The notes under the pieces were generated by a model. That model saw only the letters and a list, made by a program, of their open reading frames with translations. It was not told the origin of the DNA and searched no databases. Shown here piece by piece: positions 9,631 through 34,224 of a stretch of DNA of 64,000 bases. The stretch comes from Caldilineales bacterium (lineage in GTDB: Bacteria; Chloroflexota; Anaerolineae; J102). The position numbers and the translations under genes were made by a program. The stretch is from positions 48,793 through 112,792 of the forward strand of contig JAIBAP010000007.1 in the NCBI GenBank assembly GCA_019695115.1, written 5' to 3'. Numbering within the stretch: the first letter of the stretch is position 1; each line of letters opens with the position of its first letter.

Positions 9631-12354
9631 TTAGCGCTGCATCAGGGGCAGGTACAGGGGTGCGACCGGGCCGGCAATGCCGCCGGGGATGGTGAGCGTG
9701 GTCAGGCCGCCGCCTTCTTGCTGGCGCTGGGGAGCGCTGGCCGCCACGATGAAGCTGGCGGTAACGGCGGGGTTGTCGCCAGCCTGGATGTCGTACACGC
9801 CGTCATCCGCCGCCGACGTGTCGAGGAAGATCAGGAATTCACCGGTGGTAGCGTACTTGGGAATCGTGCCCAGGGCAACGCCGTTCACCGTCAGCTCTTT
9901 GGCCGGCCAGCCGGCGCCGCTGAGGGTGAGGATGCTGCCGCGCGCGCCGATGGTGTAGTTCAGCGACAATTGCGGTGGCAAGGGGCCAGCGCTCACATCC
10001 ATCGGGAGGGGGGTCTGCCGCATCGCGAACTGGCCCAGCGCGCCATACATGTTCCAGCCCCAGCACTTGGGCCGCCCGTTGCCGACCAGGGTGCAGGTAT
10101 GACTCCCCCCTGCCGCCACGGCCGTGACGCCGCTGCTCATGCCCATCACATCGTGGGGCGTCGAACTGTTGGCGACCGTGCCGTCGCCTAGCTCACCATA
10201 CCCATTGTAACCCCAGCACTTCACCCCGCCGCCAACCAGGGCGCAGGTGTGCCCACCATTTGCCGCCAACGCCGTAACCCCACTGGTCAAGCCAACGACA
10301 TCCACCGGTTTATCACGGCTCATGGTCGTGCCGTCGCCCAGTTCCCCAAGCAAGTTCCTTCCCCAGCATTTGACGCCGCCCGCACTGGTGAGGGCGCAAC
10401 TGTGATCGCCGCCCAGCGCCAGCGCCACGACGCCGCTCAAACCGATGACGTCCACCGGCGCTCTGCGATCCGTGGTCGTGCCATCGCCCGCCTGACCAAA
10501 ATAGTTGTTTCCCCAACACTTCACCCCACCGCCCGTCGTAAGGGCGCAGGTGTGCAGGCTTCCGCCCGCCACCGCCGCCACCCCGCTGGATAGACCCACC
10601 ACGTCCACCGGCTTGCGCCGCAACGGCGCCGTCGAGTCTTCGCCCAACTGCCCGTGCGTGTTCCTTCCCCAGCATTTGAGGCCACCACCGTCAGTGACGG
10701 CGCAGGAGTGGTTTCCGCCGGCCCCCACCGACTTCACGCCGCTGGTCAGTCCGAAGACATCGCCCGGCGTCAGGCTGGCGTCTATCTTGCCGTTGCCCAG
10801 TTCGCCGGTTCCGTTTTGGCCCCAACACTTGACCCCGCCAGCGTCGGTGACGGCGCAATTGTGAGCTCCGCCGGCGGCCAGGACTTTGACGCCGCTCAAC
10901 CTGGCCGCACAGCCGGCCGCGCCACCGGCGCACACATCCACCGGCATGGCAGAGTCGAGAGTCGTGCCATTGCCCAACGCGCCGCTCAAGTTCCATCCCC
11001 AGCACTTCACCCCGCCGCCATCGGTAAGAGCGCACGTATGCGAAGAGCCCCCCGCCAGCGCTGCCAGCCCACCCGTGAGGCCCATTACATCCACGGGCGC
11101 CGCCCGAACCTTGAACCAATCGACGCCCAGTTGGCCCCAGTAGTTTGCCCCCCAGCACTTGACCCCGCCGCTTCGCGTGAGGGCGCAGGCGTGCACCTGC
11201 CCCACTCCCAGCGCCACCGCATCGTTGCCCAGGCCCAACACATCCACGGGCGTTGAGTGGTTGGTGGCCGTGCCATCGCCCAATTGCCCGTAGGTGTTCA
11301 GCCCCCAGCATTTGACCCAGCCTTCGGTGGTGAGCGCGCAGATATGGCCGGGTTCATCGTTGAAGGCATCGCCGGTGGCGACCGCCGCCACGCCACTGCT
11401 CAGACCGATCACATCGACCGGCGTTTGGCTATCCGTGGTGGTGCCGTTGCCCAACTGCCCGAACTTGTTGAATCCCCAGCATTTCACGCCACCGCCCGTG
11501 GTCAGGACGCAAGTGTTGCGGCCGCCAGCGCTAACAGCAGCGATGCCGCTGCTCAGCCCGCTCACGTCCACCGGAGTGGTGCGGTCGGTGGTGGTGCCAT
11601 CGCCCAAGGCACCGTTCTCATTCCAGCCCCAGCACTTGACGGCGCCAGCGTTGGTGACGGCGCAACTATGCTTGTAGCCAGTCGACACGGCAATGACGCC
11701 GCTGCCCAAACCAGCGACGGCAGTGGGCTTGGTTCGCGTCACGTTGGTGCCATCGCCCACCTGGCCTTTCTCATTCGAGCCCCAGCAATAGGCGCCACCA
11801 TTGATCACGGCGCAAGCGTGGTACCCTCCTGCCGCCACCGCCGTAGCAGGCCCAGGCATATTGACCACACTTCTCGGCTTGTAAACTGTCTCCGAGGGCG
11901 GAACGCCGATGCCCAGTTGGCCAGAGTCGTTGTAGCCCCAGCACTTCAGGCTACCATCACCGAGAAGGGCACAGGAATGACCGCCACCGGCTACCACCGC
12001 CGTGATGGTATCGGAAGCAAGATCGGCCACGTCCTGAGGAACGTAGCGGTCTATGCCCATCCCGCCAGCACCATCGCCCACCTGCCCCACCCAGTCGTTG
12101 CCCCAGCACTTCACGGCGCCGCTGGTGGTGAGCACGCAGTTGTGGCCGGACCCCACCGAGAGCTTGGCAACGTTCAGCAGGGGCGGGACGGAGACGGTGT
12201 TCAGCCCGGATAGGGGAGTCTGGTCAGGTTCTTGGAGAGCGTTTTCGGGAACATCGGTCGATTGAGCGCTGGCGACCGGCGAGACGCACAGGCTCAGCGC
12301 CATCGCCAACGCCAACAACAAAGAAATGGCGGAAATACGTTGCGTTTTCATGGC
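9631..12354 (-). CDS. Secreted RCC1-repeat (regulator of chromosome condensation-like) beta-propeller protein
   Basis: Signal peptide MKTQRISAISLLLALAMALSLCVSPVASA, with the start at 12354. At least 14 tandem ~50-aa repeats follow the pattern GxxH(S/T)CALTxxGxVKCWGxNxxGQLGDGT, followed by a ~110-aa C-terminal domain. Confidence 0.85.
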   Translation of the reverse strand, partial: AMKTQRISAISLLLALAMALSLCVSPVASAQSTDVPENALQEPDQTPLSGLNTVSVPPLLNVAKLSVGSGHNCVLTTSGAVKCWGNDWVGQVGDGAGGMGIDRYVPQDVADLASDTITAVVAGGGHSCALLGDGSLKCWGYNDSGQLGIGVPPSETVYKPRSVVNMPGPATAVAAGGYHACAVINGGAYCWGSNEKGQVGDGTNVTRTKPTAVAGLGSGVIAVSTGYKHSCAVTNAGAVKCWGWNENGALGDGTTTDRTTPVDVSGLSSGIAAVSAGGRNTCVLTTGGGVKCWGFNKFGQLGNGTTTDSQTPVDVIGLSSGVAAVATGDAFNDEPGHICALTTEGWVKCWGLNTYGQLGDGTATNHSTPVDVLGLGNDAVALGVGQVHACALTRSGGVKCWGANYWGQLGVDWFKVRAAPVDVMGLTGGLAALAGGSSHTCALTDGGGVKCWGWNLSGALGNGTTLDSAMPVDVCAGGAAGCAARLSGVKVLAAGGAHNCAVTDAGGVKCWGQNGTGELGNGKIDASLTPGDVFGLTSGVKSVGAGGNHSCAVTDGGGLKCWGRNTHGQLGEDSTAPLRRKPVDVVGLSSGVAAVAGGSLHTCALTTGGGVKCWGNNYFGQAGDGTTTDRRAPVDVIGLSGVVALALGGDHSCALTSAGGVKCWGRNLLGELGDGTTMSRDKPVDVVGLTSGVTALAANGGHTCALVGGGVKCWGYNGYGELGDGTVANSSTPHDVMGMSSGVTAVAAGGSHTCTLVGNGRPKCWGWNMYGALGQFAMRQTPLPMDVSAGPLPPQLSLNYTIGARGSILTLSGAGWPAKELTVNGVALGTIPKYATTGEFLIFLDTSAADDGVYDIQAGDNPAVTASFIVAASAPQRQQEGGGLTTLTIPGGIAGPVAPLYLPLMQR

Positions 12355-12606
12355 TTTTCCTGCGCTGTGGCGGGCGCACCCGGCGGCTGCTGGAGCGAGC
12401 CGCATGCGTGGATGGGAGGCCGCTCAGACTTCGGGTTTTTACGGAAAACCCGAAGTCTCATTTGTTCCAGGGTAGCGCACGGGTATCAAAAAATCATCAA
12501 AAATCGCCGGGTGCGGCGCACCTCTTGTCTCCATTTGTGCGAGACTGCGTCGCCCCCAAACGACTCCTGCCCACCAGCCCCTCCCGCTTTGCACGACTAC
12601 CGCGTG

Positions 12607-13253: not shown

Positions 13254-13463
13254 TTATCTCCGATCTCCGAACTCTGAGGATTTGTCGCCCACCCCAAACC
13301 TGCGCACGAACTCCTCCACCCCCGCCCAATCCTGCACCGCTGCCCGCTCGCCGCTGGGCAGGTGCTCGATCCAGCCCCGCCAGCGCAGACCGGACTCGCT
13401 CCATTCCTGCCACAAGCGCAGGACGAACGTGTACGCGGCGGGAAGGGTGGGTGGTTGGGACAT
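13254..13463 (-). CDS. Hypothetical small protein (~69 aa, MSQPPTLPAAYTFVLRLWQEW...)
   Basis: Internal ATG at 13461-13463 of track ORF 13254..13691. The upstream portion of that ORF is Arg/Ala-rich and shadow-like. Trp-rich; I cannot place it in a family. Confidence 0.25.
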   Translation of the reverse strand: MSQPPTLPAAYTFVLRLWQEWSESGLRWRGWIEHLPSGERAAVQDWAGVEEFVRRFGVGDKSSEFGDRR

Positions 13464-13820
13464 GGCCGGGTGCAGCCTCGTGGCCGGACGAAAGCAGTGA
13501 CGTCCGGGGCCGAGGCGTCCGGCCCAGGCCCCGAACTTGTCCACACAGCACCCCGCAACGGGGCGGCGCCCTCTCGCCAGTGACGCCGGCGCCATGTCGA
13601 CGCCCAAAGCATCGCGCCGGAGAATCAAAAAATCATCAAAAGCGCCGGCGGCAAGCCTGTCGCCGGCGCGCGGCGCGCCGTTTGCGTCCATGCTCGTGCG
13701 CTGGCTGCATAGGGTCAGCGTCTTCGTCTGGCGCGAGATTGAACGGTCATCGGCGTTCGGCTATACTGGACGGGTCAAACCCTTGACTACTCGCATCCCC
13801 CAGCTCAAAGAGGAGCCACT

Positions 13821-15398
13821 GTGCCTTACAAGGTCTTTTTCGTCGAAGATGAGATCGTGGCCCGCGAAGGCATCCGCGACAACGTGGACTGGAAAGCCCA
13901 CGGCTTTGAGTTCTGTGGAGAAGCCCCCGACGGTGAGATGGCGCTGCCGCTGCTACAGGCGCTCAGACCCGATATCCTGATCACCGACATCCGCATGCCG
14001 TTCATGGATGGCCTGGAACTCAGCCGGATCGTCCGCGAGCGCCTGCCCAAGACCAAGGTCATCATCCTCAGCGGCCACGATGAGTTTGAGTACGCGCAGC
14101 AAGCGATCAAGCTGGGGGTATCGGAATATATGCTCAAACCGGTCTCGGTGCAGGACTTGCACCTGGTGTTGCAAAAGGTGGCAGCAGAACTGGACCGGGA
14201 GCGGATCGAGCAGGTGGCCTTGCAAAGGCTGCGCGAGCAGGCCGAGGAAAGCCGGGCCGCGCTCAAAGAGCGTTTTCTGCTCAGGCTACTCACCGGGGTC
14301 GCCTCTTCCGCCGAGGCCATCGAGAAAAGCGGGATGCTCGGCATCGACCTGATCGCCCGCTGTTACCTTGTCGTCCTGATCAGGATCGAACCTGCGCAAA
14401 GCGCGGAAACGTTCGACTTTCAGCGCTGCCAGCGTGTGCAGCAGATGCTGGCGGGCATGGTCGAGGACAATCCGGATGTCTTCTTGTTGACAAAGGATAT
14501 GGATGAGCTGGTGCTCCTGATGAAGGGGAACTCGGCCGAGAATCTGTATGAAGACAGAGAGCTGCTCATCGCGCGCGCCGGGCCCGAAGCGCGTCGTTAC
14601 GGCTGTGAGTTGATTGTCAGGTCGGGCGCGCCCCAGCAACGGATCACGGATATCCAGCGGTCTTTCGGCGAAGCGACTGATGGCATCCGATCCGCCTCCG
14701 GCTGGCACGGCGGCGCCTTCAGATTCGACAAGTCCGAGCTGCTCAAAGTCGGCAAGTCCGAGATCGAAGACTATCTGCGATCGGGAACAGTGGAGGGTTT
14801 GGATGCCTTGTTCGAAACCGTGGTGCATCCCTTGGGTGAAAATGCGCTCGGGTCGCCCGTCGTCAGGGCCGTCATCTTCACCGACATCGTCATGGCAGCC
14901 GCGAAGTTCGTGGATGAACTCGGCGGAGACGTTGGCGCCATGTTCCCGGAACTGGACAACCTGGAAACCGCTCTGACCAGCATCGGCGCCACAGAGCAGT
15001 TGCGGTCCGGCGCCCGTGACATCTTGAGCCGGGCGCTGGGGTTCAGAGACCGCCAGGTATCCAGCCAATACGCCGGCGTCATCAGGCAGGCGCAAGACTT
15101 TATCTCCCGCCGGTACATGGACCCCGAATTGTCTCTCAACAACGTGGCTGCCCAGGTAAACCTCAGCCCCTCCCATTTCAGCGCCATCTTTAGCCAGGAA
15201 ACCGGCCGTACGTTCAAGGAATACTTGACCGAAACCCGGATCAAAAGGGCCAAGGAAATGCTGCGGATGACGACGATGAAGGTGTTCGAGATCGGTTACC
15301 AGGTCGGATACAGCGACCCGCACTATTTCAGCCATGTTTTCCATAAATACACCGGTCTGACGCCCGTTGAGTTCAGGTTGCAGGCTCAGATAGGGTAG
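13821..15398 (+). CDS. Two-component response regulator, REC + AraC-type HTH (YesN-like)
   Basis: Receiver domain with D..DIRMP and K (FFVEDE...ILITDIRMPFMDG...LKP) and a C-terminal AraC HTH (LSPSHFSAIFSQETGRTFKEYL). GTG start with AGAGGAG 5 nt upstream. Confidence 0.9.
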   Translation: MPYKVFFVEDEIVAREGIRDNVDWKAHGFEFCGEAPDGEMALPLLQALRPDILITDIRMPFMDGLELSRIVRERLPKTKVIILSGHDEFEYAQQAIKLGVSEYMLKPVSVQDLHLVLQKVAAELDRERIEQVALQRLREQAEESRAALKERFLLRLLTGVASSAEAIEKSGMLGIDLIARCYLVVLIRIEPAQSAETFDFQRCQRVQQMLAGMVEDNPDVFLLTKDMDELVLLMKGNSAENLYEDRELLIARAGPEARRYGCELIVRSGAPQQRITDIQRSFGEATDGIRSASGWHGGAFRFDKSELLKVGKSEIEDYLRSGTVEGLDALFETVVHPLGENALGSPVVRAVIFTDIVMAAAKFVDELGGDVGAMFPELDNLETALTSIGATEQLRSGARDILSRALGFRDRQVSSQYAGVIRQAQDFISRRYMDPELSLNNVAAQVNLSPSHFSAIFSQETGRTFKEYLTETRIKRAKEMLRMTTMKVFEIGYQVGYSDPHYFSHVFHKYTGLTPVEFRLQAQIG

Positions 15399-15410
15399 CG
15401 AGGTGACACC

Positions 15411-16862
15411 ATGCCAATGTATCTGTCCGTGCGGACGAAAATCCTGCTTTCACTGTGCATCGTGATCTTGATCATGAGCGTCACCAATGTCGCCCTGGTG
15501 TTGCAGGTATTGAGCTACGGCCGCCAGTATGACGCCATCATCGCCAACATCACCACGGCCAACAGCATCAGCGGGCATATCAAACCTGAGATCGATACGG
15601 AAATGTGGCGGATCGTGGCCGGCAAGATCGACTTCGACGCCGGCAAACAGTACGACATCATCAACGATGTGAATGCCAAGGTGCAACAGATGACGGCCAA
15701 CACCACCTCGCCGCGGGCCAGGATCAAGCTAGAAGGAATCTTGAGGACCATGTTGACACTTACACAGGATGTCAACCGGATGGGCCAGCAGATCGCGGCC
15801 GGCAGCACTACGGCCGAGAATGAGGCAGTGTTGGAGGACATTCGCTTTGTCTCCGACGTGGTGGAACAGGTGGTGCAGGATTACGCCCTGTTCGAAGTGC
15901 AGCGAACCAGCAACCAGTATCAGCAAATCCGGGCCGGTTTCACACGTTGGGGCATCCTCTATTCCGTGCTGATGGCCGGCGCCATCGTCTTTTCGGTGCT
16001 GGCCGCCTGGCGTATTTCCAGAAGCATCTACATCCCGATTCAGAAGCTTCATGATATGACCAGCACCATCACCAAGAATGACTTGCAGGCGCTGGTGACG
16101 CACGACAACGTCGATGAGATCACCGAACTGGGCATCAGCTTCAATATCATGGTCGGCAGAATCAGAGATCTGCTCGATGCGAAGGTCAGGGAACAGGAGA
16201 ACCTGAAAAAAGCCGAGTTGCGGGCCTTGCAAGCGCAGATCAATCCCCACTTTCTCTATAACACGTTGGACGCCATCATTTGGATGGCAGAGTCGAAGCG
16301 AACGGACGATGTGATCGAGATCGTCAGGGCGTTGTCGAATTTCTTCAGGATCAGTCTCAGCAAGGGCAGAGATTGGATCACCATTGGCGAGGAAATCGAA
16401 CGAACCCGCAGCTATCTGACCATTCAGAAGATGCGTTATCACGATATTGTGGATTATCAGATCGAACAAGACGACGGCGTAGCAGGCTATAGCGTCCTGA
16501 AATTGATCCTGCAACCGTTGGTCGAGAATGCACTGTATCACGGTGTCAAGAACAAACGGCGGGGCGGAACGATCGTGGTGCGAGCCAAACCGTGGAACGA
16601 GAACGACATTCTGCTCCAGGTCGAGGACAACGGTATCGGCTTTACCCCGGAGAGGTTGGCGCACCTACAGGCGGAACTCAATGACGAATCCGGGGAAATC
16701 AAACTGGAAAGCGGGTTTGGCATAGGCAATGTCCACAAACGAATCCGCCTCTATTATGGCAAGCAGTACGGGGTTTCGATTCAGAGCGAGTATCAGGTAG
16801 GCACATGCGTATCGATCCTCATTCCAGCACGTTGCGGTGAAGTGGAAGGAGACGGCCCATGA
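15411..16862 (+). CDS. Sensor histidine kinase, LytS/YesM-type (TM-HAMP-His_kinase-HATPase)
   Basis: Two TM segments flank a ~150-aa extracytoplasmic loop. The LytS-type H-box INPHFLYNTLDAIIWMA and the HATPase_c motifs (ENALYHG, DNGIGF, GFGIGN) are present. Confidence 0.9.
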   Translation: MPMYLSVRTKILLSLCIVILIMSVTNVALVLQVLSYGRQYDAIIANITTANSISGHIKPEIDTEMWRIVAGKIDFDAGKQYDIINDVNAKVQQMTANTTSPRARIKLEGILRTMLTLTQDVNRMGQQIAAGSTTAENEAVLEDIRFVSDVVEQVVQDYALFEVQRTSNQYQQIRAGFTRWGILYSVLMAGAIVFSVLAAWRISRSIYIPIQKLHDMTSTITKNDLQALVTHDNVDEITELGISFNIMVGRIRDLLDAKVREQENLKKAELRALQAQINPHFLYNTLDAIIWMAESKRTDDVIEIVRALSNFFRISLSKGRDWITIGEEIERTRSYLTIQKMRYHDIVDYQIEQDDGVAGYSVLKLILQPLVENALYHGVKNKRRGGTIVVRAKPWNENDILLQVEDNGIGFTPERLAHLQAELNDESGEIKLESGFGIGNVHKRIRLYYGKQYGVSIQSEYQVGTCVSILIPARCGEVEGDGP

Positions 16863-17863
16863 AGCGGTGGCAACTCTTTGTTCGGCTGCTGATGGCCGCA
16901 ATGGTGATCGGTTTGGTAGGGTGCCAGGGCAGCGTCCCCGCTCCGCCCCCACAACCTGCTGCCACGATCGACGCCAAACCCAAGAAAACCTATGCCGACC
17001 TCATCGTTGGCTACGTGCAGCTCGGCGCCGAAAGCGAGTGGCGTTCCGCCAACACGGCTTCGGTCAAGGAGGCGGCGGAAGCGGCAGGGGTCGAGCTACG
17101 ATTCTCGGACGCGCAGCAGAAGCAGGAAAACCAAATCAAGGCCATCCGTTCGCTGATTGCCCAAAGGGTGGATGTGATCGGGGTGGCGCCGTTGACTGAG
17201 ACAGGCTGGACGGAAGTTTTTCAAGAAGCCAAGGATGCCGGCATTCCGATCATCCTCGTCGACCGTCGCGCCGATGTCGCACCCGACCTTTATGTAACAC
17301 TGATGGGGTCTGACTTTATGGAAGAAGGTCGCAAAGCTGCCCGCATTATGGCGGATCTGACTGGCGGCGAGGCCAACATTGTCGAACTGGTGGGTACGAT
17401 CGATTCTGCGCCCGCCAACGACCGCTATAAGGGTTTCAGAGAGGTGATGAAGGACTATCCGGGCATGAAGATCATCGCTTCGCGCAGCGGCGATTTCACC
17501 GTCGCCCAGGGCAGAGAAGTCATGGAAGCATTTTTGCAGGAGCATGGCGATGCCATTACTGCCGTCTATGCCCACAACGACGACATGGCGCTGGGAGCGA
17601 TCAAGGCGATCGAAGCGCACGGGCTACGACCGGGCATCGACATCAAGATCGTCTCGGTCGATGCAGCCCGTGGAGCCTTCGAGGCGATGGTCGCTGGCAA
17701 GTTGAACGCCACGGTTGAGTGCAATCCGTTGCTCGGCCCCGAGTTCATCGAGACAGCCTTGAAGGTGGTCAACGGTGAAACGGTGCCGAAGTGGCTGCCG
17801 TCCGAGGAAGGCGTCTTCTTCCCGGACGATGCCGCCGAGATCCTGCCCACGCGCACGTACTGA
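16859..17863 (+). CDS. YtfQ-like periplasmic sugar-binding lipoprotein (sensor-associated SBP)
   Basis: Lipoprotein signal MKRWQLFVRLLMAAMVIGLVGC. The segments QQKQENQIKAIRSLIAQ and AVYAHNDDMALGAIKAIEAHGLRPG match my recollection of E. coli YtfQ (galactofuranose-binding PBP1). Its start overlaps the kinase stop (ATGA). Confidence 0.85.
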   Translation: MKRWQLFVRLLMAAMVIGLVGCQGSVPAPPPQPAATIDAKPKKTYADLIVGYVQLGAESEWRSANTASVKEAAEAAGVELRFSDAQQKQENQIKAIRSLIAQRVDVIGVAPLTETGWTEVFQEAKDAGIPIILVDRRADVAPDLYVTLMGSDFMEEGRKAARIMADLTGGEANIVELVGTIDSAPANDRYKGFREVMKDYPGMKIIASRSGDFTVAQGREVMEAFLQEHGDAITAVYAHNDDMALGAIKAIEAHGLRPGIDIKIVSVDAARGAFEAMVAGKLNATVECNPLLGPEFIETALKVVNGETVPKWLPSEEGVFFPDDAAEILPTRTY

Positions 17864-17978
17864 GGGACATCGAAAAATAGTCAACTTCCAGCCAAAAAAC
17901 TTGTACGTTGTTGCGCCAGACGTGTTTTGTCGTGGTTGGATAGAACAAGAACCTCATCCTTCCCCCAAAGAAATATCA

Positions 17979-18007
17979 TTGACTCTCCGCACTCACAGGT
18001 ATAGTAT
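17979..18007 (+). promoter_or_regulatory. Sigma-70-like promoter for the SBP2-ABC transporter operon
   Basis: TTGACT with a 15-17 nt spacer and a TATAGT/TAGTAT -10 box, ~90 nt upstream of the SBP2 ATG. Confidence 0.45.
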
Positions 18008-18024
18008 CGGCAATAGTCGGCCGT

Positions 18025-18043
18025 ATTTCATCCCGGGTGAAAT
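18025..18043 (+). promoter_or_regulatory. Perfect palindrome ATTTCA-tcccggg-TGAAAT in the SBP2 5' leader
   Basis: 6-bp arms around a 7-bp palindromic core, between the putative promoter and the RBS. Candidate operator or RNA hairpin. Confidence 0.4.
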
Positions 18044-18094
18044 GCGCCTCGTCGAATAACCCAACAAGCCGAACCCACCGAAGGAGAGAATGAA

Positions 18095-19087
18095 ATGAAG
18101 ACCTCGGCAGTCTTGTTCTTCGTTACGTTGTTTTTGGTCGTGTCTGTGGTGGCTGGTTGTGCGCCGGCAGGGCAAAGCCAGGCAACTGCGGCCCCTGTCG
18201 TCACTACCAAAACCTATGCAGACTTGACGTTGTGCTATCCCCAACTCGGCGCCGAGAGCGACTGGCGCACGGCCAATACGGCCTCGATCAAAGAGACCGC
18301 CGAGAAACTGGGGATCAAGCAGTTGGTATTCTCGGATGCGCAGCAGAAGCAAGAGAACCAGATCGCAGCCGTACGCGCCTGCATCGCACAGAAGGTGGAC
18401 GTGATCGCTCTGCCGCCTGTTGTCGAAGACGGTTGGGATGCCGCCCTCACTGAGGCCAAGAACGCTGGCATCCCGGTGATCATCGTTGACCGCAGCGTGA
18501 GCGCCGACCCTTCGCTCTACGCCGCCCACATCGGCTCGAACATGGTGCTGGAAGGTGAGCGCGCCGCCGCCGAGTTCAACAAGATGTTGCCCAATGGCGG
18601 GGCCGTGCTCGAACTTTCGGGGACCACCGGTTCGGGCGCAGCGGTTGGCCGGGCCAAGGGCTTCCGCAACAAACTCAACCCCAACATCAAGATCCTCGAC
18701 TCGCAGACCGGCAACTTCACCCGCGCCGAAGCCGTGCCCGTGATGCAGGCCTTCTTGAAAAAGTACAAGCCAGGTCAGGACTTCCAGGGCGTCTTCATCC
18801 ACAACGATGACATGGGCATTGGCGCCATCGAGGCCCTCAAGGCCGCCGGCGTCAACCCCGGCGACCTCAAGATCGTGTCTGTGGATGGCACCCGCGGTGG
18901 GTTCCAGGCCATGGTCGACGGTTGGTTCCAGGCCGATGTCGAATGCAATCCCCTGCTCGGCCCGCAAGTCTTCGACATGGCCCTGAAGCTGGTGAACGGC
19001 GGAGCGGTCGATCGCGAAACTCTGACCAACGAGACCGTGTACTATCCTGACAAGGCCACCGATCTGCTGCCCACCCGCCAGTACTAA
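18095..19087 (+). CDS. YtfQ-like ABC transporter sugar-binding lipoprotein
   Basis: Paralog of the previous SBP (QQKQENQIAAVRACIAQ; IHNDDMGIGAIEALKAAGVNPG) with a lipobox VVAGC. It has its own promoter and is the first gene of the transporter operon. Confidence 0.85.
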   Translation: MKTSAVLFFVTLFLVVSVVAGCAPAGQSQATAAPVVTTKTYADLTLCYPQLGAESDWRTANTASIKETAEKLGIKQLVFSDAQQKQENQIAAVRACIAQKVDVIALPPVVEDGWDAALTEAKNAGIPVIIVDRSVSADPSLYAAHIGSNMVLEGERAAAEFNKMLPNGGAVLELSGTTGSGAAVGRAKGFRNKLNPNIKILDSQTGNFTRAEAVPVMQAFLKKYKPGQDFQGVFIHNDDMGIGAIEALKAAGVNPGDLKIVSVDGTRGGFQAMVDGWFQADVECNPLLGPQVFDMALKLVNGGAVDRETLTNETVYYPDKATDLLPTRQY

Positions 19088-19136
19088 TCACCCCGGTTGC
19101 GCGAGTCCCAACGACCACGCACGCCTACACCTCCAA

Positions 19137-19182
19137 CCTGAACAGAGAAGCGGCGTCCTCTGGCGCTACTTCTCTGTTCAGG
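19137..19182 (+). promoter_or_regulatory. Intercistronic stem-loop between SBP2 and the ATPase gene
   Basis: CCTGAACAGAGAAG-(18 nt)-CTTCTCTGTTCAGG is a perfect 14-bp stem with no T-tract. This is typical of the mRNA stabiliser or partial attenuator that follows a highly expressed SBP gene. Confidence 0.5.
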
Positions 19183-19237
19183 ACAGACGACGCCCACATG
19201 CCAGCCGGCTTGAGCATTCGAACCAGCAGGAGTTCCT

Positions 19238-20758
19238 ATGACCGCCGCCGAACCACAGACTATCCTCAGCATGCGAGGCATCACCAAGTCCTTCCCAGGC
19301 GTCATGGCCCTTGAGGAAGTCGACTTTTCTTTGCGGGCAGGTGAAGTGCACGCCCTGATGGGAGAGAATGGGGCGGGGAAATCGACATTGATCAAGGTGT
19401 TGACGGGGGTAGAACAGCCTGACTCCGGTGTGATCGAGCTGATGGGCAAACCGGTGCAAGTGCGATCTCCGCAGCATTCACAGAAAATCGGCATCAGCAC
19501 GGTCTATCAAGAAGTCAACCTGTGCACTAATCTGTCGGTGGCCGAGAACATCCTGTTAGGACGCGAGCCTCATCGCTTCGGCGGCATCGACTGGCGGCAG
19601 ATGAATCGACTTGCCGGCCAGGCAATGAAGCGACTGGACATCGACATCGATGTCTCGCGCCCACTGGGTGCGTACTCGCTGGCCATCCAGCAAATGACCG
19701 CCATCGCCCGCTCGCTGGAGATCGCTTCCGCCAAAATCTTGATCCTGGATGAGCCTACTTCCAGCCTGGACGCCAACGAAACCAAACTCCTGTTCGAGGT
19801 GATCCAGAAGCTGCGGAATGAAGGGATCGGCATCATCTTCATCACCCACTTCTTGGATCAGGTGTACCGGATCGCCGATCGGATCACCGTCCTTCGCAAC
19901 GGCAGGTTAGTGGGCGCCTATGAGACCGCTTCCCTGCCGCGCGTCGAGCTTGTCGCCAAAATGTTGGGCCGCAGCATGACCGATCTGGCGGCGGTATCGG
20001 AATCCAAGGCCAAACACGAGCAGGAGACTCAATTGCAGCCGCTGCTCGAAGCCAAAGGGTTGGGGCGCGCAGGCGCCCTCGACCCCACCGACCTGGAGCT
20101 GAACGTGGGGGAGGTGGTAGGGATCGCCGGTCTTCTTGGCTCCGGCCGCACCGAAATGGCAAACCTGCTCTTTGGCGTCGATACGCCCGACACAGGCTCG
20201 CTCATGGTCAAAGGCAACAAGGTCGAACGCTTTTCGCCGATACACTCGCTTCGCAACCGCATCGCCTTGTGCCCTGAAGACCGGAAGGCGCAAGGCATTG
20301 TGGGTGATCTGACGATTCGAGAGAATATCATCCTGGCGTTGCAAGCTCGCTACGGTTGGTTCCGATACCTGAACATTGCCCAACAAAACGAGGTTGCCGA
20401 CAGGTACATCACGCTGCTGGGAATCGTTACTCCCTCGCCTGAACAATTGACCAAGAACCTGAGCGGCGGCAATCAGCAAAAGGTCATCCTGGCCCGGTGG
20501 CTGGCCACCAGCCCACAGGCGCTGATCCTGGACGAACCAACCAGAGGCATCGATGTCGGCGCCAAAGCCGAGATTCAGAAGCTGGTGCTCGATCTGGCCG
20601 AGGAGGGCAAGTCCTGCATCTTCATTTCCTCAGAACTGGAAGAAGTGATGCGCATCAGTCACCGCATTGTGGTGATGCGCGACCACAAGAAAGCGGCTGA
20701 ATATACGGGTGATGTTGACGCACAGACCATCATCCACACCATGGCAGGGGTGCTATGA
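19238..20758 (+). CDS. Sugar ABC transporter ATP-binding protein, duplicated ATPase (YtfR/RbsA-like)
   Basis: Two ABC cassettes: Walker A GENGAGKST and LSGGNQQK; signature LSLAIQQM-type; Walker B ILILDEPT and LILDEPTRGID. AGGAG RBS upstream. Confidence 0.9.
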   Translation: MTAAEPQTILSMRGITKSFPGVMALEEVDFSLRAGEVHALMGENGAGKSTLIKVLTGVEQPDSGVIELMGKPVQVRSPQHSQKIGISTVYQEVNLCTNLSVAENILLGREPHRFGGIDWRQMNRLAGQAMKRLDIDIDVSRPLGAYSLAIQQMTAIARSLEIASAKILILDEPTSSLDANETKLLFEVIQKLRNEGIGIIFITHFLDQVYRIADRITVLRNGRLVGAYETASLPRVELVAKMLGRSMTDLAAVSESKAKHEQETQLQPLLEAKGLGRAGALDPTDLELNVGEVVGIAGLLGSGRTEMANLLFGVDTPDTGSLMVKGNKVERFSPIHSLRNRIALCPEDRKAQGIVGDLTIRENIILALQARYGWFRYLNIAQQNEVADRYITLLGIVTPSPEQLTKNLSGGNQQKVILARWLATSPQALILDEPTRGIDVGAKAEIQKLVLDLAEEGKSCIFISSELEEVMRISHRIVVMRDHKKAAEYTGDVDAQTIIHTMAGVL

Positions 20759-21831
20759 AGAACTCTCCGCGACTCAAACGCATGCGTGAAAGCCGGCTGT
20801 TCCTGCCGTTGGGCGCGCTGGCGTTGATTCTGCTTTTCGATGCCATCTATGCTCCCAGTTTCTTCAGGATTGGCATCCAAAGCGGGCACCTGTATGGCAA
20901 CCTCATCGATGTGCTCAACAATGGCGCCCCGCTCATGCTGGTGTCCATTGGTATGACTCTGGTGATTGCCACCGGGGGGATCGATCTGTCGGTGGGCGCG
21001 GTGATTGCGATCTCGGCGGCGATGGGGGCGGTGTTGATCAACCCGGCCCTGGGCAACAGACTGATCAGCAATGAAATCCTGACCAAAGATGCCACCAACA
21101 CACCTCTGCCGATCATCGTTCTGGCCACCTTGGCGGCAGGGACATTGTGTGGACTCTGGAACGGGCTTCTAGTCTCAAGGGCCAGGATCCAACCGATGGT
21201 GGCGACGTTGATCTTGATGGTGGCTGGCCGTGGCATTGCCCAACTCATCACCAATGGGCAAATCATGACCATCTACTACACGCCCTATTTCTGGTTTGGC
21301 AACGGTTATATCTTAGGTTTGCCTGTTTCGATCTACATTGTCGCGTTTGTGGTTCTCGTGACCTGGGTATTGGTGCGCAGGACGGCGATCGGTATGTTCA
21401 TCGAGTCGGTGGGAATCAACGCTAAGGCATCCTACTACGGCGGTGTGGACGAGAAGAACATCAAATTGGCGGTCTACGCCTTTTGCGGCCTGTGTGCAGC
21501 TATTGCTGGTTTGATCCTCAGTTCCTATGTCCACAGCGCCGATGGCAACAACAACGGCCTAAACTATGAGTTGGATGCCATTCTCGCGGTGGTCATGGGT
21601 GGAACGCTGTTGTCAGGTGGACGATTTTCCTTGTTCGCCAGTGTGATCGGCGCCGTGGTCATTTGGACTTTCACCCTGACGGTGTACACGCTGGGGGTGC
21701 CTGCGAATGCTCTGCTGGCCGCGAAGGCGGTGCTGGTCATGGTTGTCATCCTCCTTTATTCCGACTTTGCGCGACGACTGTTGAACAGGCTATCCGAGAG
21801 GAGAGGTACCCAAGATGGTACGGCGTCTTAA
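20755..21831 (+). CDS. Sugar ABC transporter permease (YtfT-like)
   Basis: Polytopic membrane protein of the BPD_transp_2 type (RbsC/YtfT family). Its start overlaps the ATPase stop. Confidence 0.85.
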   Translation: MKNSPRLKRMRESRLFLPLGALALILLFDAIYAPSFFRIGIQSGHLYGNLIDVLNNGAPLMLVSIGMTLVIATGGIDLSVGAVIAISAAMGAVLINPALGNRLISNEILTKDATNTPLPIIVLATLAAGTLCGLWNGLLVSRARIQPMVATLILMVAGRGIAQLITNGQIMTIYYTPYFWFGNGYILGLPVSIYIVAFVVLVTWVLVRRTAIGMFIESVGINAKASYYGGVDEKNIKLAVYAFCGLCAAIAGLILSSYVHSADGNNNGLNYELDAILAVVMGGTLLSGGRFSLFASVIGAVVIWTFTLTVYTLGVPANALLAAKAVLVMVVILLYSDFARRLLNRLSERRGTQDGTAS

Positions 21832-22795
21832 GCCCTTCCTGTTGGACTATGGTCCCCTGCTGACGACTGTAGCGATTTTCATCCTGGCCTACTTCATTGG
21901 CGGCCGCATCTATCCCGTCATGCGGCAGCCGCAGGTATTCTTCAACCTGTTCATCAACAACGGTAGCCTGTTGCTCGTCTCCATTGGTATGACGTTGGTG
22001 ATCCTGACGGGGGGCATCGACCTGTCGGTCGGCGGGGTGCTGGCCTTGACCACGGCCGCGTCGGCAGCTCTGCTCAAGGCTGGCGTCAGTCCGGTGCTGG
22101 TGATCCCGCTGATGATCGCAATGGGGATCACGTTTGGGCTGACTATGGGCGGCATCATCCAGTTCCTGAAGGTGCAGCCTTTCATCGCCACCTTGATGGG
22201 ACTGTTCTTTGCACGCGGCATGGCCTATATCATCAGCCTGAGTTCTGTCACTATCACCGATAGTTTCTACAAGTATCTGGCGTTGACGCCCGTCTACATA
22301 CCCTTTTTCTCCAAAACCTATGTCTATATTCCCACCCTTGTAGGGCCGCTGATGCTTTTGGTGTCCATCTACCTGACCTATTTCACTCGTTTTGGCCGCA
22401 CCGTCAAAGCCATTGGCAACAACGAACAGTCGGCTCTGCTGATGGGTCTACCGGTCGCACGCACGAAGCTCGCAGTCTACTCCTTCAGCAGTCTTTGTTC
22501 TGCTCTCGCCGGCATCGTCTTCAGCATGTCTCTGCTGGCTGGCTATGGCCAGTTTGCCACCGGCATGGAGTTGGACGCCATCGCCTCCGTGGTGATGGGC
22601 GGCACGTCGCTGTCAGGGGGTATCGGCTCGGTGATCGGCACCCTTTTTGGCGTCCTGATCAACGGCACCATCGTCTCGATCCTGCAATTCAACGGCACCC
22701 TGAGTTCGTGGTGGACGCGCATTGGCGTCGGTGTGCTCACACTCATTTTCATCGGCATTCAAAGCATTTTCTACGTGCGCAAGAAGCATTCTTGA
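21815..22795 (+). CDS. Sugar ABC transporter permease (YjfF-like)
   Basis: Second BPD_transp_2 permease overlapping the previous gene by 17 nt. This completes a ytfQRT-yjfF-type gene order. Confidence 0.85.
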   Translation: MVRRLKPFLLDYGPLLTTVAIFILAYFIGGRIYPVMRQPQVFFNLFINNGSLLLVSIGMTLVILTGGIDLSVGGVLALTTAASAALLKAGVSPVLVIPLMIAMGITFGLTMGGIIQFLKVQPFIATLMGLFFARGMAYIISLSSVTITDSFYKYLALTPVYIPFFSKTYVYIPTLVGPLMLLVSIYLTYFTRFGRTVKAIGNNEQSALLMGLPVARTKLAVYSFSSLCSALAGIVFSMSLLAGYGQFATGMELDAIASVVMGGTSLSGGIGSVIGTLFGVLINGTIVSILQFNGTLSSWWTRIGVGVLTLIFIGIQSIFYVRKKHS

Positions 22796-22871
22796 CAGCG
22801 GTTCGGCGCCATTTCTCCCGTCCTGTATCTCTGCGTCGTTCACCGCCTTCGTCCCGCCATCGTTCGGCCGC

Positions 22872-25800
22872 TCAGTGTTCTTCGATCACAATCGCCTTCC
22901 ATCCCTGTTCTCCCTGCATCGGGGCCGTGGCATAGTGCTTTACCCAGGGTTTGACCAGCATCGGGATATGCGGATAAAACATCGGCGCCACCGACGCCTC
23001 GTGTAAGAGCAGGTCTTCGGCCTGGTGGTAGAGACGCATTCGGGCGGCATGGTCGAATTCCCGGCGCGCTTCTTCGACCAGGCGATCATAAGTCGGGTTC
23101 TGCCAACCGGTGAAGCGCCGCACCTGCGCCATCGCCTGGCGCAGCCAGTCGTCAGGGTCGGGGTAGTTGCCCCACCACGACAACCCAAAGACGTGCGGTC
23201 GATCGACCGCCAGGCCAGCCAGATACTCACTGCGCGCCACTACCTCCGCTGTGATGTCGATGCCCAAGTTGTCGCGCCATTGCCCCACCCAGGCCGGCAC
23301 GGTCTGCTCGGCTTCGGGCGTGTAGAAAGTACGGAAGCGGATGGGCGGGAAGCCACGACCATCCGGGTAGCCAGCCTCGGCCAAGAGTTGGCGCGCCCGA
23401 TCGAGATCATAAGGCAGACCGACGCCAGGCCGGTGTCCGGGCATCCTGGCCGGGATCCAGCCTCCGCGATCGATGGCCCAGTGGTCTTTGCCTTGCGCCG
23501 CACGCACGGGAATGACATCTAACGCTCTGGCGAAGGCTTCGCGCACGCGCACGTCGTCGAACGGCGGCCGGCGTACGTCGAAACCGGATGCAACTGTGTA
23601 ATAAACGGGGAAAACTTTACGCTCTTGGCGGAAGCGCCGCTCCACCTCGACCAGGGCCGCCTGTGGCAGATTGCCGATCATCACCGCATCGATTTCACTC
23701 GCCTTGTACATCGCCAGCCCCAACCGCCAATCGGCCAGGGCCTCGGAGTTCAGCAACAGGTGAATCTCTTGCAGGTTGCCGGTGAAGCGTCTGCTAAAGC
23801 CAGGGTTGCGGGTGAGCACGATTTTGTCTCCACGCCGCCAGCTCAGCAATTGAAAGGCGCCGTTGCTGGCGATGTGCTCCGGTTGCGTCCAGGCATCGCC
23901 CCACTGTTCCACCACGTGACGGGGAATGGGGAAAGCGGCCGGCAAGGCCAACAGATGCAGGAAATAGGCAGCGGGTTGGGCCAGAGTCACGGCCAGGGTG
24001 AGATCATCTACCGCTTTCACACCCACCTGCTCCGAATCCTGAAGCCGTCCTTCGTGCAGATCCTGGGCGTTGGCGATGTCGTACAAGAAGCGGGCTGCGG
24101 GCGAATCCCTTTGTGACAACACCCGTTTCCAGGCATACTCGAAATCCTTCGCCGTGACAGGGGCGCCGTCCGTCCAGGCAGCGTCTGACCGCAGATGGAA
24201 GAGGTATCGCCGGCCGCCGTCCAGGGCTTCCCAGCGCCAGGCTGCGTCTGGGATGACCTCCATTTCCGGGCTTTCCTCCACCAGCCCGCTAAAGACGTGA
24301 TGGGTGACGCTGGCATCGCCTAGAATGGGATCGACGCTGAGTGGGTGATAGACATAAAGCAAGCGGAAGGGATGAGGGGCAGGCGGCAGGGTCAGGGCGC
24401 GTACCCTGATCGCCTCTGCCTTCTGCCAGAGGGCAAAGCCTTCGTCGTAGACTTGCCGCGCCGCCTCGAAGGCAAAGACGCTATGATGGGTCTGTCCCAG
24501 CCTGAGAAGCGTATGTGCGGCGGCTTCATCATCACCCACCCCCTGCGCTATCGCCAGCGCGCGCTGATAATAGTCGATTGCCTCCTGGCTGGCGTACAAC
24601 GTGCGCGCCCGGTCGCCCGCCAACCATAGATAGCGCAGGGCCTTTGCCGTCAGCGCGGGGTCGTGCCCGCGGCCTTGCTCGAAGTGAAAAGCCAGCTCGC
24701 CCGCCAGCGCCTCGGCTTGGGTGGCATAGACGTGTTCCATGCCCTCGCCCACTCGACCGTGGATACGTCGCCGCCTCTGTTGCGGCAGTTCAGCATAAAG
24801 AACTTCCTGGATTTTGTGGTGAGTGAAGGCATAGTCTCGTCCCAACGGTCCCGTCCCTTCCTCGATCAGCCGGTGACGCAACAGATCCTCGACCGCCGCC
24901 AGCGTCGCCTCCTCACCTTGGCCCCAGATCGCCGCCAACAGGTCGAAATCGAACTCGCGCCCCAATACTGCCGCCACACTCAGGGCCTCTTGCGTCGTCT
25001 CTGGCACACGACGAGCGCGCGCGAGGATCGCCTCGCCCATCGTGGCGGGCAGAGGCAGCCTGGCCCTGATCGCTTGAGTCAGCTCACCCTGCCAGACGCT
25101 TCCTTCCATCCGCAGCACTCCCGCTTCGAACAACGCTTTGATTACCTGCATCAGGAAGAACGGGTTGCCTTCGGTCTCCCGGTACAACCATCCTGCCAGC
25201 GACCGCGCCTCCTCTCCCCTGCCCGACATCTCGTTCACGAATCGCTCTACGTCCTGTAGCGCCAACGGCGCCAACGTCAGCACCTCTGCCTTACCTTCGC
25301 GACTTAACCGACGGCTCATGGCGTTGAGGGGGTGATCCGATGCCAGCGCTTCGGGCCGAAAAGTGATCGCCAGCAGCGCCGGTCGTCCGTTCAGGCGTTG
25401 GGCCAAATGATGCACCATATCCAACGTCGGCCCTGTGGCCCAATGCAAATCCTCCAAGACGATCAAAATCGGCCCGTGTCCGGAAAGCTCGGACAGGAAT
25501 CTGGCTACGCCTTCGAACAGATGCTGAGGGTCGGCATCATTGGCGCCGCCGGGGGCGGGCCAGGCGCGCGGGCGTAACTCGCCGATCTCCGGCGCCAGCC
25601 GCTCGACCTCGATCAGGGTCCAGGCAGAAAGGGTTGCCGCTTCGTCGGCAGCCAGCGACGGCAACAGCGAGTGCAAGGCCTCGGCCACGGGTTGATAGGG
25701 CAGCACCCGCTCGAACTCGAAGCAACGTCCCCAAAGGACGCGGCCGCCCTGCCACCGCACCCACTGGCTGAAATCCTCCATGAGCCGCGTCTTCCCCCGT

Positions 25801-26708
25801 CCGGCCTCGCCGCGGATGAACACCGGTAACCCGCGTCCGGCCTTTGCCTCAACCCAGCGCGCCCGCAATCGCGTCCATTCCTGCTCGCGCCCCACCAGTC
25901 TGCCCCTTGTCAAGGCGTCGAATGGGTCGCGTCCGCCCGTAAGCGGGACAGGTGGCTCGGATTGCAGGGGCGTGGTCGCCGTGCCAACGCTCTCACCCAA
26001 GCGGTCCGACCGGATCGCTTCGGCGAGGGCGGTGGTTTCGGGCATCGGATCTGCGCCGAGTTCTTTCCGCAAAACATTTTGGCAGCGGCGGTACTGTTCC
26101 AGCGCCGCGCCGCGCCGGCCCAAGGCCGCGAACGTCCGCATGGCCAGCCGGTGGGCATCCTCGCGCAGTGGGTCGCAGGCCAGCAAGCGCCCGGCCGCGG
26201 CCAGCGCCGCCTCGAAATCGCCCTGCACTTCGCGACCAGTCATCAGCCGCGCCAGCGCCTCGGTATAGAGCGCCTCCAGCCGGTATCGCTCCGAGATCAC
26301 CCAGTCATCGTAAAAGCCGTCCAGAAAGTCGCCGCGATAGAGACTCACAGCCTCTTGTGCAGCGTCTAGGTCTCTACGCGCCGCCAGATCCGCAAAGGCA
26401 TCGCTGTCGAGCCAGCAATCGACCTCGGGAGCGAGGAAAACCGTGTGCAAATCGCTGACGATCACACCGTCGCCCAGGCAACGGCGGATATGCCATAGCG
26501 CCGTGGCCAGCGAGTGATGAGCCTTCTCTTCTGGCCTCTCACCCCAAAAGAGATCGGCCAGGCGTTCGCGGGGATGGGGCTGCCGACGATGGACCAGGAG
26601 ATAGGCCAGCAATGACTGAGACTTGAGTGTGGGTGGCTTGAGCAGGCTGCGCTCGCCCATGCACACGTCTATCGACCCGAACAGACGGACTTGTAGAACA
26701 GACGCCAT
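22872..26708 (-). CDS. SARP/AfsR-family regulator (wHTH-BTAD-NB-ARC ATPase-TPR) fused to a C-terminal family-5 solute-binding protein domain
   Basis: N-terminal OmpR-like wHTH (LQVRLFGSIDV...LKSQSLLAYLLV...LADLFWGERPEE), BTAD (LYRGDFLDGFYDDWVISERYRLEALY), Walker A GEAGRGKTRL and Walker B ILIVLEDLHWA, and a TPR-like alpha region. The C-terminal ~520 aa carry SBP_bac_5 hallmarks (WTDGAPVTAKDFEYAWKRVL; Opp/Dpp-like fold). There is no signal peptide or TM segment. Confidence 0.8.
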   Translation of the reverse strand: MASVLQVRLFGSIDVCMGERSLLKPPTLKSQSLLAYLLVHRRQPHPRERLADLFWGERPEEKAHHSLATALWHIRRCLGDGVIVSDLHTVFLAPEVDCWLDSDAFADLAARRDLDAAQEAVSLYRGDFLDGFYDDWVISERYRLEALYTEALARLMTGREVQGDFEAALAAAGRLLACDPLREDAHRLAMRTFAALGRRGAALEQYRRCQNVLRKELGADPMPETTALAEAIRSDRLGESVGTATTPLQSEPPVPLTGGRDPFDALTRGRLVGREQEWTRLRARWVEAKAGRGLPVFIRGEAGRGKTRLMEDFSQWVRWQGGRVLWGRCFEFERVLPYQPVAEALHSLLPSLAADEAATLSAWTLIEVERLAPEIGELRPRAWPAPGGANDADPQHLFEGVARFLSELSGHGPILIVLEDLHWATGPTLDMVHHLAQRLNGRPALLAITFRPEALASDHPLNAMSRRLSREGKAEVLTLAPLALQDVERFVNEMSGRGEEARSLAGWLYRETEGNPFFLMQVIKALFEAGVLRMEGSVWQGELTQAIRARLPLPATMGEAILARARRVPETTQEALSVAAVLGREFDFDLLAAIWGQGEEATLAAVEDLLRHRLIEEGTGPLGRDYAFTHHKIQEVLYAELPQQRRRRIHGRVGEGMEHVYATQAEALAGELAFHFEQGRGHDPALTAKALRYLWLAGDRARTLYASQEAIDYYQRALAIAQGVGDDEAAAHTLLRLGQTHHSVFAFEAARQVYDEGFALWQKAEAIRVRALTLPPAPHPFRLLYVYHPLSVDPILGDASVTHHVFSGLVEESPEMEVIPDAAWRWEALDGGRRYLFHLRSDAAWTDGAPVTAKDFEYAWKRVLSQRDSPAARFLYDIANAQDLHEGRLQDSEQVGVKAVDDLTLAVTLAQPAAYFLHLLALPAAFPIPRHVVEQWGDAWTQPEHIASNGAFQLLSWRRGDKIVLTRNPGFSRRFTGNLQEIHLLLNSEALADWRLGLAMYKASEIDAVMIGNLPQAALVEVERRFRQERKVFPVYYTVASGFDVRRPPFDDVRVREAFARALDVIPVRAAQGKDHWAIDRGGWIPARMPGHRPGVGLPYDLDRARQLLAEAGYPDGRGFPPIRFRTFYTPEAEQTVPAWVGQWRDNLGIDITAEVVARSEYLAGLAVDRPHVFGLSWWGNYPDPDDWLRQAMAQVRRFTGWQNPTYDRLVEEARREFDHAARMRLYHQAEDLLLHEASVAPMFYPHIPMLVKPWVKHYATAPMQGEQGWKAIVIEEH

Positions 26709-29668: not shown

Positions 29669-29673
29669 CGGTG

Positions 29674-30951: not shown

Positions 30952-30960
30952 AGGCAGAAC

Positions 30961-34206: not shown

Positions 34207-34224
34207 GGTGTTTCTCCTTTGATG

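Follow-up and report, generated by a model that had tools for sequence, protein, structure and literature searches.

Gene organization of the locus

We analysed a stretch of 64,000 nucleotides from a Caldilineales bacterium (Chloroflexota; GenBank assembly GCA_019695115.1, contig JAIBAP010000007.1, positions 48,793 to 112,792 of the forward strand), hereafter called the window, in which seven genes at positions 13821-22795 appear to couple the sensing of a sugar to its import. A prediction made earlier from the sequence had placed here a response regulator (RR), a histidine kinase (HK) and a solute-binding protein (SBP1), followed by a promoter, a second solute-binding protein (SBP2), a double-cassette ATPase and two permeases. 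This order was borne out: all seven open reading frames (ORFs) were intact on the plus strand at the positions originally assigned to them and carried the domains described. Our analysis supports, at a probability of roughly 0.7, a three-component sensor in which SBP1, HK and RR control the adjacent importer. The genes would then form two transcription units, 13821-17863 and 18095-22795, within one regulatory circuit.

Domains were assigned with Pfam and NCBIfam. RR (13821-15398) consists of a REC domain (Response_reg, 5.9e-24), a linker of ~290 aa with a weak GGDEF_2 match, and an AraC-type helix-turn-helix (HTH) domain matched by both HTH_18 and HTH_AraC, an architecture known from YesN and CuaR. 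Asp56, within the motif ILITDIRMP, is the likely phospho-acceptor. HK (15411-16862) carries HAMP, His_kinase (PF06580) and HATPase_c domains, its conserved histidine is His280 in an NPHF motif, and its core matches the PDB entry 6swj ('Histidine kinase') at 5e-28. The kinase had been called LytS-type; its architecture, however, is that of YesM, with two transmembrane segments, an outer domain and HAMP, not that of LytS proper with five transmembrane segments.

SBP1 (16859-17863) follows immediately, its ATG overlapping the TGA of the kinase gene by 4 nt (ATGA), and is a predicted lipoprotein of the GafA/YtfQ family (lipobox LVGC) whose Cys22 is invariant among its relatives. The kinase/regulator operon contains in it an SBP gene distinct from the transporter's own. 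After a spacer of 231 bp, SBP2 (18095-19087; lipobox VAGC, Cys22), a member of the same family, opens the transporter operon. It is followed by the ATPase with two ABC_tran domains (19238-20758; YtfR/GafB-like) and two BPD_transp_2 permeases (20755-21831, YtfT/GafC-like; 21815-22795, YjfF/GafD-like), which is the gene order of GafABCD/YtfQRT-YjfF. The best NCBIfam models were YtfQ (320 bits for SBP1 and 272 for SBP2, cut-off 510), YtfR (676, cut-off 850), YtfT (330, cut-off 535) and YjfF (338, cut-off 363). Since every score lies below its equivalog cut-off, the transporter belongs to this family, but functional equivalence is not assured.

Both SBPs had been described as YtfQ-like, which agrees with YtfQ being their best NCBIfam model and with GafA/YtfQ proteins being their best solved relatives. 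The motifs quoted in support were present in SBP1 and E. coli YtfQ (QQKQENQIKAIR and YAHNDDMALGAIKAI) and only in part in SBP2 (QQKQENQIAAVR and FIHNDDMGIGAIEAL).

Synteny, binding pocket and kinase outer domain

For comparison we used the best 80 of 496 SBP1 relatives (one genome per species scanned; 66-82% identity) and annotated their loci with the seven window proteins as queries. All 80 came from Chloroflexota (Anaerolineae, Thermoflexales, Caldilineae, Herpetosiphon and Ardenticatenaceae), and the unchanged operon was also present on many metagenome contigs. The order RR-HK-SBP-[second SBP]-ATPase-permease-permease was kept in nearly all 80 loci, with an SBP gene directly behind an orthologous kinase gene in 77. 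The gap between these two genes was at most 30 nt in 47 of 76 loci and the identical 4-nt overlap recurred in 18, whereas the gap between first and second SBP was at least 211 nt in every relative. Across relatives, the RR was conserved to 75% in its REC domain and to 60% in its HTH domain.

In a neighbour-joining tree the HK-adjacent SBPs (SBP_A) formed one clade. The second SBPs (SBP_B) fell into three types: B2, which is SBP2-like, the more distant B3, and B1, a small set near the sensor clade that is 63-74% identical to SBP1. The transporter proteins varied together with the type of SBP_B, and the sensor module was joined to at least three types of transporter cassette. A 318-aa ORF directly 3' of the second permease gene (16783-17736 in the locus L040, and in 27 other loci), which has no Pfam or NCBIfam match, trailed the B3-type cassette in the relatives whose maps were inspected.

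Identities to the window proteins split the operon in the same manner. Spearman coefficients were 0.49-0.62 among RR, HK and SBP_A and 0.72-0.93 among SBP_B, ATPase and permeases (0.87-0.93 for SBP2-type proteins and permeases), and only 0.06 for SBP_A versus SBP_B. When pairwise distances were compared within single transporter types, SBP_A correlated with the HK outer domain at 0.65 and 0.90, and SBP_B at 0.25 and 0.35; SBP_B correlated with the permeases at 0.54-0.83, against 0.33-0.36 for SBP1-type proteins. This split in co-variation suggests that sensor and transporter modules have separate histories and that SBP1 belongs to the sensor module.

The two SBPs of the window are 49% identical to each other and 45-57% identical to the solved GafA proteins. 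Their nearest solved relatives are the GafA/YtfQ proteins of M. smegmatis, Shewanella and E. coli, the best PDB matches of SBP1 being GafA proteins at 1e-85. The entries 6HBD, 6HBM, 6HYH and 6HB0 represent M. smegmatis MSMEG_1712, with L-arabinofuranose and D-galactofuranose as ligands, 5OCP the Shewanella GafA, with L-arabinofuranose only, and 2VK2 the E. coli YtfQ (PMC10191376). The same study names E. coli Arg38 and Asp111, together with a stacking Trp and Phe, as binding residues (PMC10191376). We mapped these residues by alignment and took the positions invariant in the three GafA proteins as the full pocket list. E. coli Arg38 aligned with SBP1 Arg62, and SBP1 Asp135 with Asp111 (E. coli), Asp110 (Shewanella) and Asp105 (M. 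smegmatis). In all, eleven positions proved common to SBP1, SBP2, their clades and the three GafA proteins: Glu58, Trp61, Arg62, Asp135, Arg136, Arg189, Phe213, Asn240, Asp241, Asp268 and Glu287. Because these pocket residues are kept in both proteins, SBP1 and SBP2 are both predicted to bind a furanose. Identical pockets, together with docking of both SBPs to the permeases, had been proposed as grounds for rejecting a sensor role of SBP1; identical pockets are no such ground, since a sensor SBP would be expected to recognise the same ligand as its transport counterpart.

The genes beside the relatives point to the sugar. At least one of araA, araD and an FGGY sugar kinase gene lay within 7 kb in 25 of the 80 loci, and all three in 12. 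The L-arabinose isomerase and L-ribulose-5-phosphate 4-epimerase of these relatives exceeded their NCBIfam cut-offs (828 bits versus 622 and 328 versus 251), whereas the FGGY kinase, with XylB as best model, did not (120 versus 380); galactose genes were absent from the recurrent neighbours of the 80 relatives. Galactofuranose and arabinofuranose had been suggested on an equal footing. The reading as a furanose stands, and because araA and araD flank the relatives, L-arabinofuranose is the likelier of the two. We put the odds slightly above even that it is the signal, with D-galactofuranose possibly an additional ligand.

The same circuit may instead respond to a different furanose, such as D-galactofuranose, or to a pentose. 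The closest solved relative, the M. smegmatis protein with dual specificity, shares Asn65 with SBP1 and SBP2, at the position aligned with Shewanella Phe40, the residue that blocks galactofuranose (PMC10191376). The second shell moreover differs from that of all characterised GafA proteins: at position 60 the SBP1 clade has Glu, the SBP2 clade Asp and GafA proteins Gly; Asn187 of the SBP1 clade is replaced by Val or Ile elsewhere (Ile in GafA proteins); and where the SBP1 clade has Tyr190, other proteins have Ala, Gly or Lys (Lys or Ala in GafA proteins). Neither arabinose nor galactose catabolic genes were found in the 64-kb window, and the absence of the former speaks against an arabinose signal. 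Given the curated araA and araD matches beside many relatives, and no galactose genes among recurrent neighbours, we regard another sugar as possible but doubtful.

A kinase that is contacted by an SBP needs a sufficient outer domain, and the original prediction had allowed that the loop might be too short. Two hydrophobic segments of HK (residues ~10-33 and ~180-203) flank an outer domain of ~148 residues (~33-180), which is long enough, and its conservation across relatives (64%) is close to that of the ATPase domain (66%). An AlphaFold2 model built with 27 sequences (mean pLDDT 88.5) showed a four-helix bundle continuous with both transmembrane helices. Foldseek searches of the PDB with this model returned four-helix bundles of sensors, with 4k0d on top and NarQ, PcaY and MCP2201 among the others. 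At rank 10 was 5xsj_L, the LytS-N chain from the complex with XylFII (TM-score 0.83 target-normalised, rmsd 2.4 Å, 121 columns), although with E = 0.04 and 7% identity. In the known complex, the outer domain of LytS consists of one four-helix-bundle module, and XylFII binds to its side (PMC8050422). The modelled HK outer domain thus appears to be of suitable length and of the right fold class for contact with an SBP.

Several findings weigh against a role of SBP1 as the sensing partner of HK. The 80 loci were picked by SBP1 similarity, and they describe close relatives rather than the generality of the kinase-SBP link. The four-helix bundle is a generic fold, and neither phmmer nor the 27-sequence profile detected homology of the outer domain to LytS-N or to any solved chain. 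Direct binding of small ligands is also known for bundles of this type (Tar, NarQ, PcaY). A single SBP gene lies between kinase and ATPase genes in the loci L077, L078 and L061, and L065 encodes a closely related SBP and transporter without a kinase; in all four, a close relative of SBP1 directly precedes the ATPase genes, which shows that SBPs much like SBP1 work with transporters. No position was 90% conserved in the sensor clade yet rare in all transport clades, and only Leu167, Tyr190 and Phe320 set the sensor clade apart from the nearest transport-type set (B1), Tyr190 alone standing out. When SBP1 was compared with transport-type relatives, no loss of conserved positions, such as those of a permease-docking surface, was detected.

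The idea of a transport-inactive sensor SBP had been carried over to SBP1 from the XylFII-LytS-YesN system. With no clean distinguishing residue in the sensor clade, no detectable loss of docking surface and single-SBP relatives in existence, it finds no support in the sequences. SBP1 and SBP2 might even be two transport SBPs of differing affinity or specificity that serve one importer, with HK sensing directly and the position of SBP1 reflecting mere co-expression. The near-identity of the two pockets would fit this explanation, as would the four loci and the directly sensing receptors just mentioned. We nevertheless consider it quite improbable: SBP1-type proteins co-varied with HK and RR, and not with the permeases, even within one transporter type; the sensor module was retained while the transporter cassette was swapped; the kinase-SBP1 linkage is tight, with codons often overlapping; and in L064 the genes for RR, HK and SBP occur with no transporter nearby.

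SBP1 could also both signal to HK and feed the permeases, as ChvE or BctC do, with SBP2 adding capacity after induction. Systems in which one SBP serves both roles are documented (PMC10384115, PMC8050422), and in the single-SBP relatives the SBP gene stands between those for kinase and ATPase. The sensor clade is sister to, or inclusive of, the transport-adjacent B1 SBPs, and no loss of conserved surface positions was found in SBP1-type proteins. The SBPs of L077 and L078, like that of L065, however, group with the B1 set and lie outside the core sensor clade, while the L061 SBP falls inside it, nearest to the HK-adjacent SBPs of L085 and L076; in addition, SBP1-type and permease distances correlate poorly, as given above. 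We think such a dual role rather unlikely and favour SBP1 as the sensing partner of HK. The sensing logic of XylFII-LytS-YesN, as the original prediction had it, is supported by synteny, co-variation, outer-domain fold and retained pocket and by the promoter element described below.

Putative control regions and proposed circuit

Two sigma-70-like matches were found in 9.8 kb, a count not above chance. The first (13739-13767, plus strand; TTGAAC-17-TATACT), 54 nt upstream of the RR GTG, is promoter-like by its match to the consensus. The second (17979-18007, plus strand; -35 TTGACT, 17-nt spacing, -10 TAGTAT) precedes the SBP2-transporter operon. This site, which agrees with the promoter originally predicted before SBP2, gains support because a conserved element lies directly upstream.

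The element (17945-17974, plus strand) comprises two A-rich half-sites ~21 bp apart (AAAGAAAT) that abut the -35 hexamer. In the spacers between SBP_A and SBP_B of relatives it reads GAAAAAATCAACTTCTTCCCAAAAAGAAAT and is followed by a -35 sequence (ATGGAT or TTGAC) within 1-5 nt. We built a position weight matrix from 21 other loci and scored both strands of the 64 kb against shuffled sequences. The element scored 30.9 bits, compared with 12.0 bits for the next best site in the window and 13.4 bits for the shuffle maximum. A weaker distal copy just past the SBP1 stop codon (17871-17900, plus strand) scored 11.7 bits; it ranks third in the window, with a score that shuffled sequences also reach. 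Relatives show ATCGAAAGAAAnTTAAC at this position, followed by a hairpin and a T-run. Upstream of the RR gene we looked for a match as a sign of autoregulation by the same element and found none. A direct repeat that touches the -35 region is the layout used by class II activators of the AraC/XylS family. Because the element is linked to the conserved sensor module whatever transporter follows, we propose 17945-17974 as the binding site of the AraC-type RR.

A hairpin with T-run follows the SBP1-type gene in ~60% of relatives. In the window, however, no significant structure was found after SBP1 (z = 0.05), which counts against a strict separation of the two units; without a convincing terminator, transcription may continue into SBP2. 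Between SBP2 and the ATPase gene, in contrast, lies a 20-bp stem-loop without T-run (19137-19182, plus strand). The minimum free energy of this intergenic region was -57.5 kcal/mol (z = -4.5), a value reached by none of 200 shuffled sequences, and hairpins of -20 kcal/mol or better were present at this spacer in 58 of 60 relatives, compared with 30% of coding controls. Hairpins after SBP genes typically raise the amount of SBP over that of the membrane parts. The stem-loop likely acts in this way, by stabilising the transcript or by attenuation, which fits SBP2 as the transport SBP.

About 12 nt past the -10 hexamer of the SBP2 promoter is a near-perfect palindrome of 30 nt, GGCCGTATTTCATCCCGGGTGAAATGCGCC (18019-18048, plus strand), which could fold into a 5' hairpin. 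A search of the window and 1.42 Mb of related loci found it once in the window, and 25 of the 27 matches in related loci lay in transporter leaders, including that of the kinase-less L065. Its CCCGGG core is conserved, while the outer stems vary in sequence yet remain complementary, as judged from single-sequence folds. The palindrome could act as an RNA element, or it could be an operator to which a second regulator binds. As the operator of a wider regulon it was rejected: the two matches outside leaders sit inside long ORFs and look like chance. No Rfam family was found in 13300-23100, the palindrome included.

Relatives with long leaders have further features at this place. In L029 (11140-11165), L021, L033 and L059, a LacI-type palindrome, TGTTATCGATAACA, lies just past the -10 hexamer, and these leaders contain another conserved hairpin with the loop GATTGGCGTCT (L029 11273-11318). 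Both features are absent from the window and without an Rfam match; L029 gave four sub-threshold Rfam matches (E 0.13-0.53), all within 11026-11145 and none on the hairpin at 11273-11318. These features suggest a second layer of control on the transporter operon.

Taken together, we propose the following circuit, in which every binding step, the choice of sugar and the sign of the regulation are inferred from sequence. The first unit (13821-17863) would probably be expressed at a low constitutive level from 13739-13767. SBP1, anchored on the outside of the membrane, would bind a furanose, most likely L-arabinofuranose that has just been set free from arabinoxylan or arabinan. Closed SBP1 would then engage the four-helix-bundle outer domain of HK, much as XylFII does on LytS, upon which HK would autophosphorylate at His280 and pass the phosphate to Asp56 of RR. 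RR would bind the A-rich direct repeat at 17945-17974, touching the -35 hexamer, and perhaps also 17871-17900, and thereby activate the second unit (18095-22795). The latter would supply the GafABCD/YtfQRT-YjfF-type importer, with the stem-loop keeping SBP2 in excess over the membrane parts.

The G+C content of 14001-22000 is 0.56-0.60, compared with 0.62-0.70 in the flanks, and the closest relatives of the operon (~80% identity) come from metagenome-assembled genomes labelled Anaerolineae or Anaerolineales, whereas the window itself comes from a genome labelled Caldilineales. The cassette as a whole may have been acquired horizontally. Upstream of the sensor operon lies a gene for a 924-aa protein made almost entirely of RCC1 repeats (9631-12405, minus strand), separated from the RR gene by short ORFs including one for a DUF5674 protein. 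Downstream, at 22872-26708 on the minus strand, is encoded a 1278-aa protein with BTAD, AAA_16 and TPR domains and, at its C-terminus, an SBP_bac_5 domain. No hydrophobic segment is present, and the protein seems to be a cytoplasmic SARP/LAL-like regulator that uses a family-5 solute-binding domain as sensor, an unusual fusion; its gene adjoins the operon in same-species contigs only. An operon 4 kb downstream (27023-35456, minus strand) encodes a LacI regulator, an SBP_bac_1 protein, two BPD_transp_1 permeases, a glycoside hydrolase of family GH8 and a GH3 enzyme with a PA14 insert, and probably serves the uptake and breakdown of xylo- or cello-oligosaccharides. Farther away, an HsdM-type N6 DNA methylase gene (59459-61057, minus strand) lies in the patch of lowest G+C content in the window (0.525), beside three ORFs without family match, and likely marks a restriction-modification island.

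Relation to known systems and significance

The general design is established: an importer with its own SBP stands beside genes for a sensor SBP, a kinase of the YesM type and a regulator with REC and AraC domains. One example is the XylFII-LytS-YesN system of C. beijerinckii (5XSJ), which likewise combines an SBP of the Peripla_BP_4 (CUT2) type with a sensor of the His_kinase family with two transmembrane segments and a REC-AraC regulator. There, too, the system controls a neighbouring CUT2 importer that has an SBP of its own (xylFGH), and the kinase has a single four-helix-bundle outer domain (PMC8050422). The two systems differ in that their outer domains have no detectable sequence homology and that XylFII belongs to another subfamily: 5xsj_X matched SBP2 at 1e-6 only and was absent among the best 60 of 123 SBP1 matches (E <= 0.001). 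The clostridial system responds to xylopyranose and is found in Bacillota, whereas we predict a furanose and find the order RR-HK-SBP in Chloroflexota.

AraPST is reported to have a sensing role in Geobacillus (said to be the finding of Shulami et al. in 2011). As at our locus, genes for an arabinose-related SBP, a kinase and an AraC-type RR immediately precede those of a CUT2 importer that has a separate SBP. SBP1 matches the PDB entry 6sw4 ('Arabinose binding protein') at 3e-12; 6sw4 is presumably AraP, and 6swj, the match of the HK core, presumably AraS. The AraP-like and ChvE-like SBPs are, however, not of the GafA type and have low identity to SBP1 and SBP2, the gene order is SBP-HK-RR in Geobacillus, and the ligand there is presumed to be a pyranose, unlike that of the furanose-type pocket described here. 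The genes araPST and araEGH exist in Geobacillus stearothermophilus (PMC4194401), and a similar arabinose locus has been noted in Parageobacillus (PMC13068155).

CuaDSR/cuaABC-cbpA of Ruminiclostridium cellulolyticum has a sensor lipoprotein SBP, a kinase, a REC-(~300 aa)-AraC regulator and a separate transport SBP; its sensor SBP binds the kinase and its transport SBP does not (PMC10384115). Unlike SBP1, CuaD is a family-1 SBP for cellobiose, the CuaS outer domain comprises ~270 aa, and the transporter is of the CUT1 type. GafABCD/YtfQRT-YjfF of E. coli, Shewanella sp. ANA-3 and M. smegmatis (MSMEG_1712), finally, agrees with our importer in best matches, gene order and pocket residues. These known systems are regulated by cytoplasmic factors of the GalR, GalS or AraC type, and the NCBIfam scores of our proteins stay below the equivalog cut-offs. 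A kinase-linked GafA paralogue is neither described in PMC10191376 nor found in the literature that we searched.

What appears to be new here is the GafA family in a proposed sensor role, the occurrence of the design in Chloroflexota, and evidence that the sensor module is a portable cassette that comes with a defined operator. More tentatively, and at somewhat less than even odds, the locus could represent the first known signalling specific to the furanose form of a sugar, through an RR-HK-SBP module with an A-rich operator that has been coupled to at least three different furanose-transporter cassettes, with the CCCGGG palindrome perhaps as a second control element. L-Arabinofuranose is the product of arabinofuranosidases and decays to the pyranose form by mutarotation. 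A sensor of the GafA type would therefore report ongoing hemicellulose hydrolysis nearby rather than bulk arabinose.

To our knowledge, work on three-component sugar sensors has been confined almost entirely to Bacillota. Within Chloroflexota, Anaerolineae and Caldilineae are abundant in digesters, activated sludge and sediments, and gene regulation in these two groups is essentially unexplored. Our findings would extend the three-component design to Chloroflexota and to the furanose-binding GafA family. SBP1 and SBP2, 49% identical and with the same pocket, form a natural system to study what directs an SBP to dock on a kinase or on a permease, with Glu60, Asn187 and Tyr190 as candidate residues that discriminate sensor from transport SBPs. 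If the furanose reading is true, the module may also become a biosensor part for arabinoxylan breakdown.

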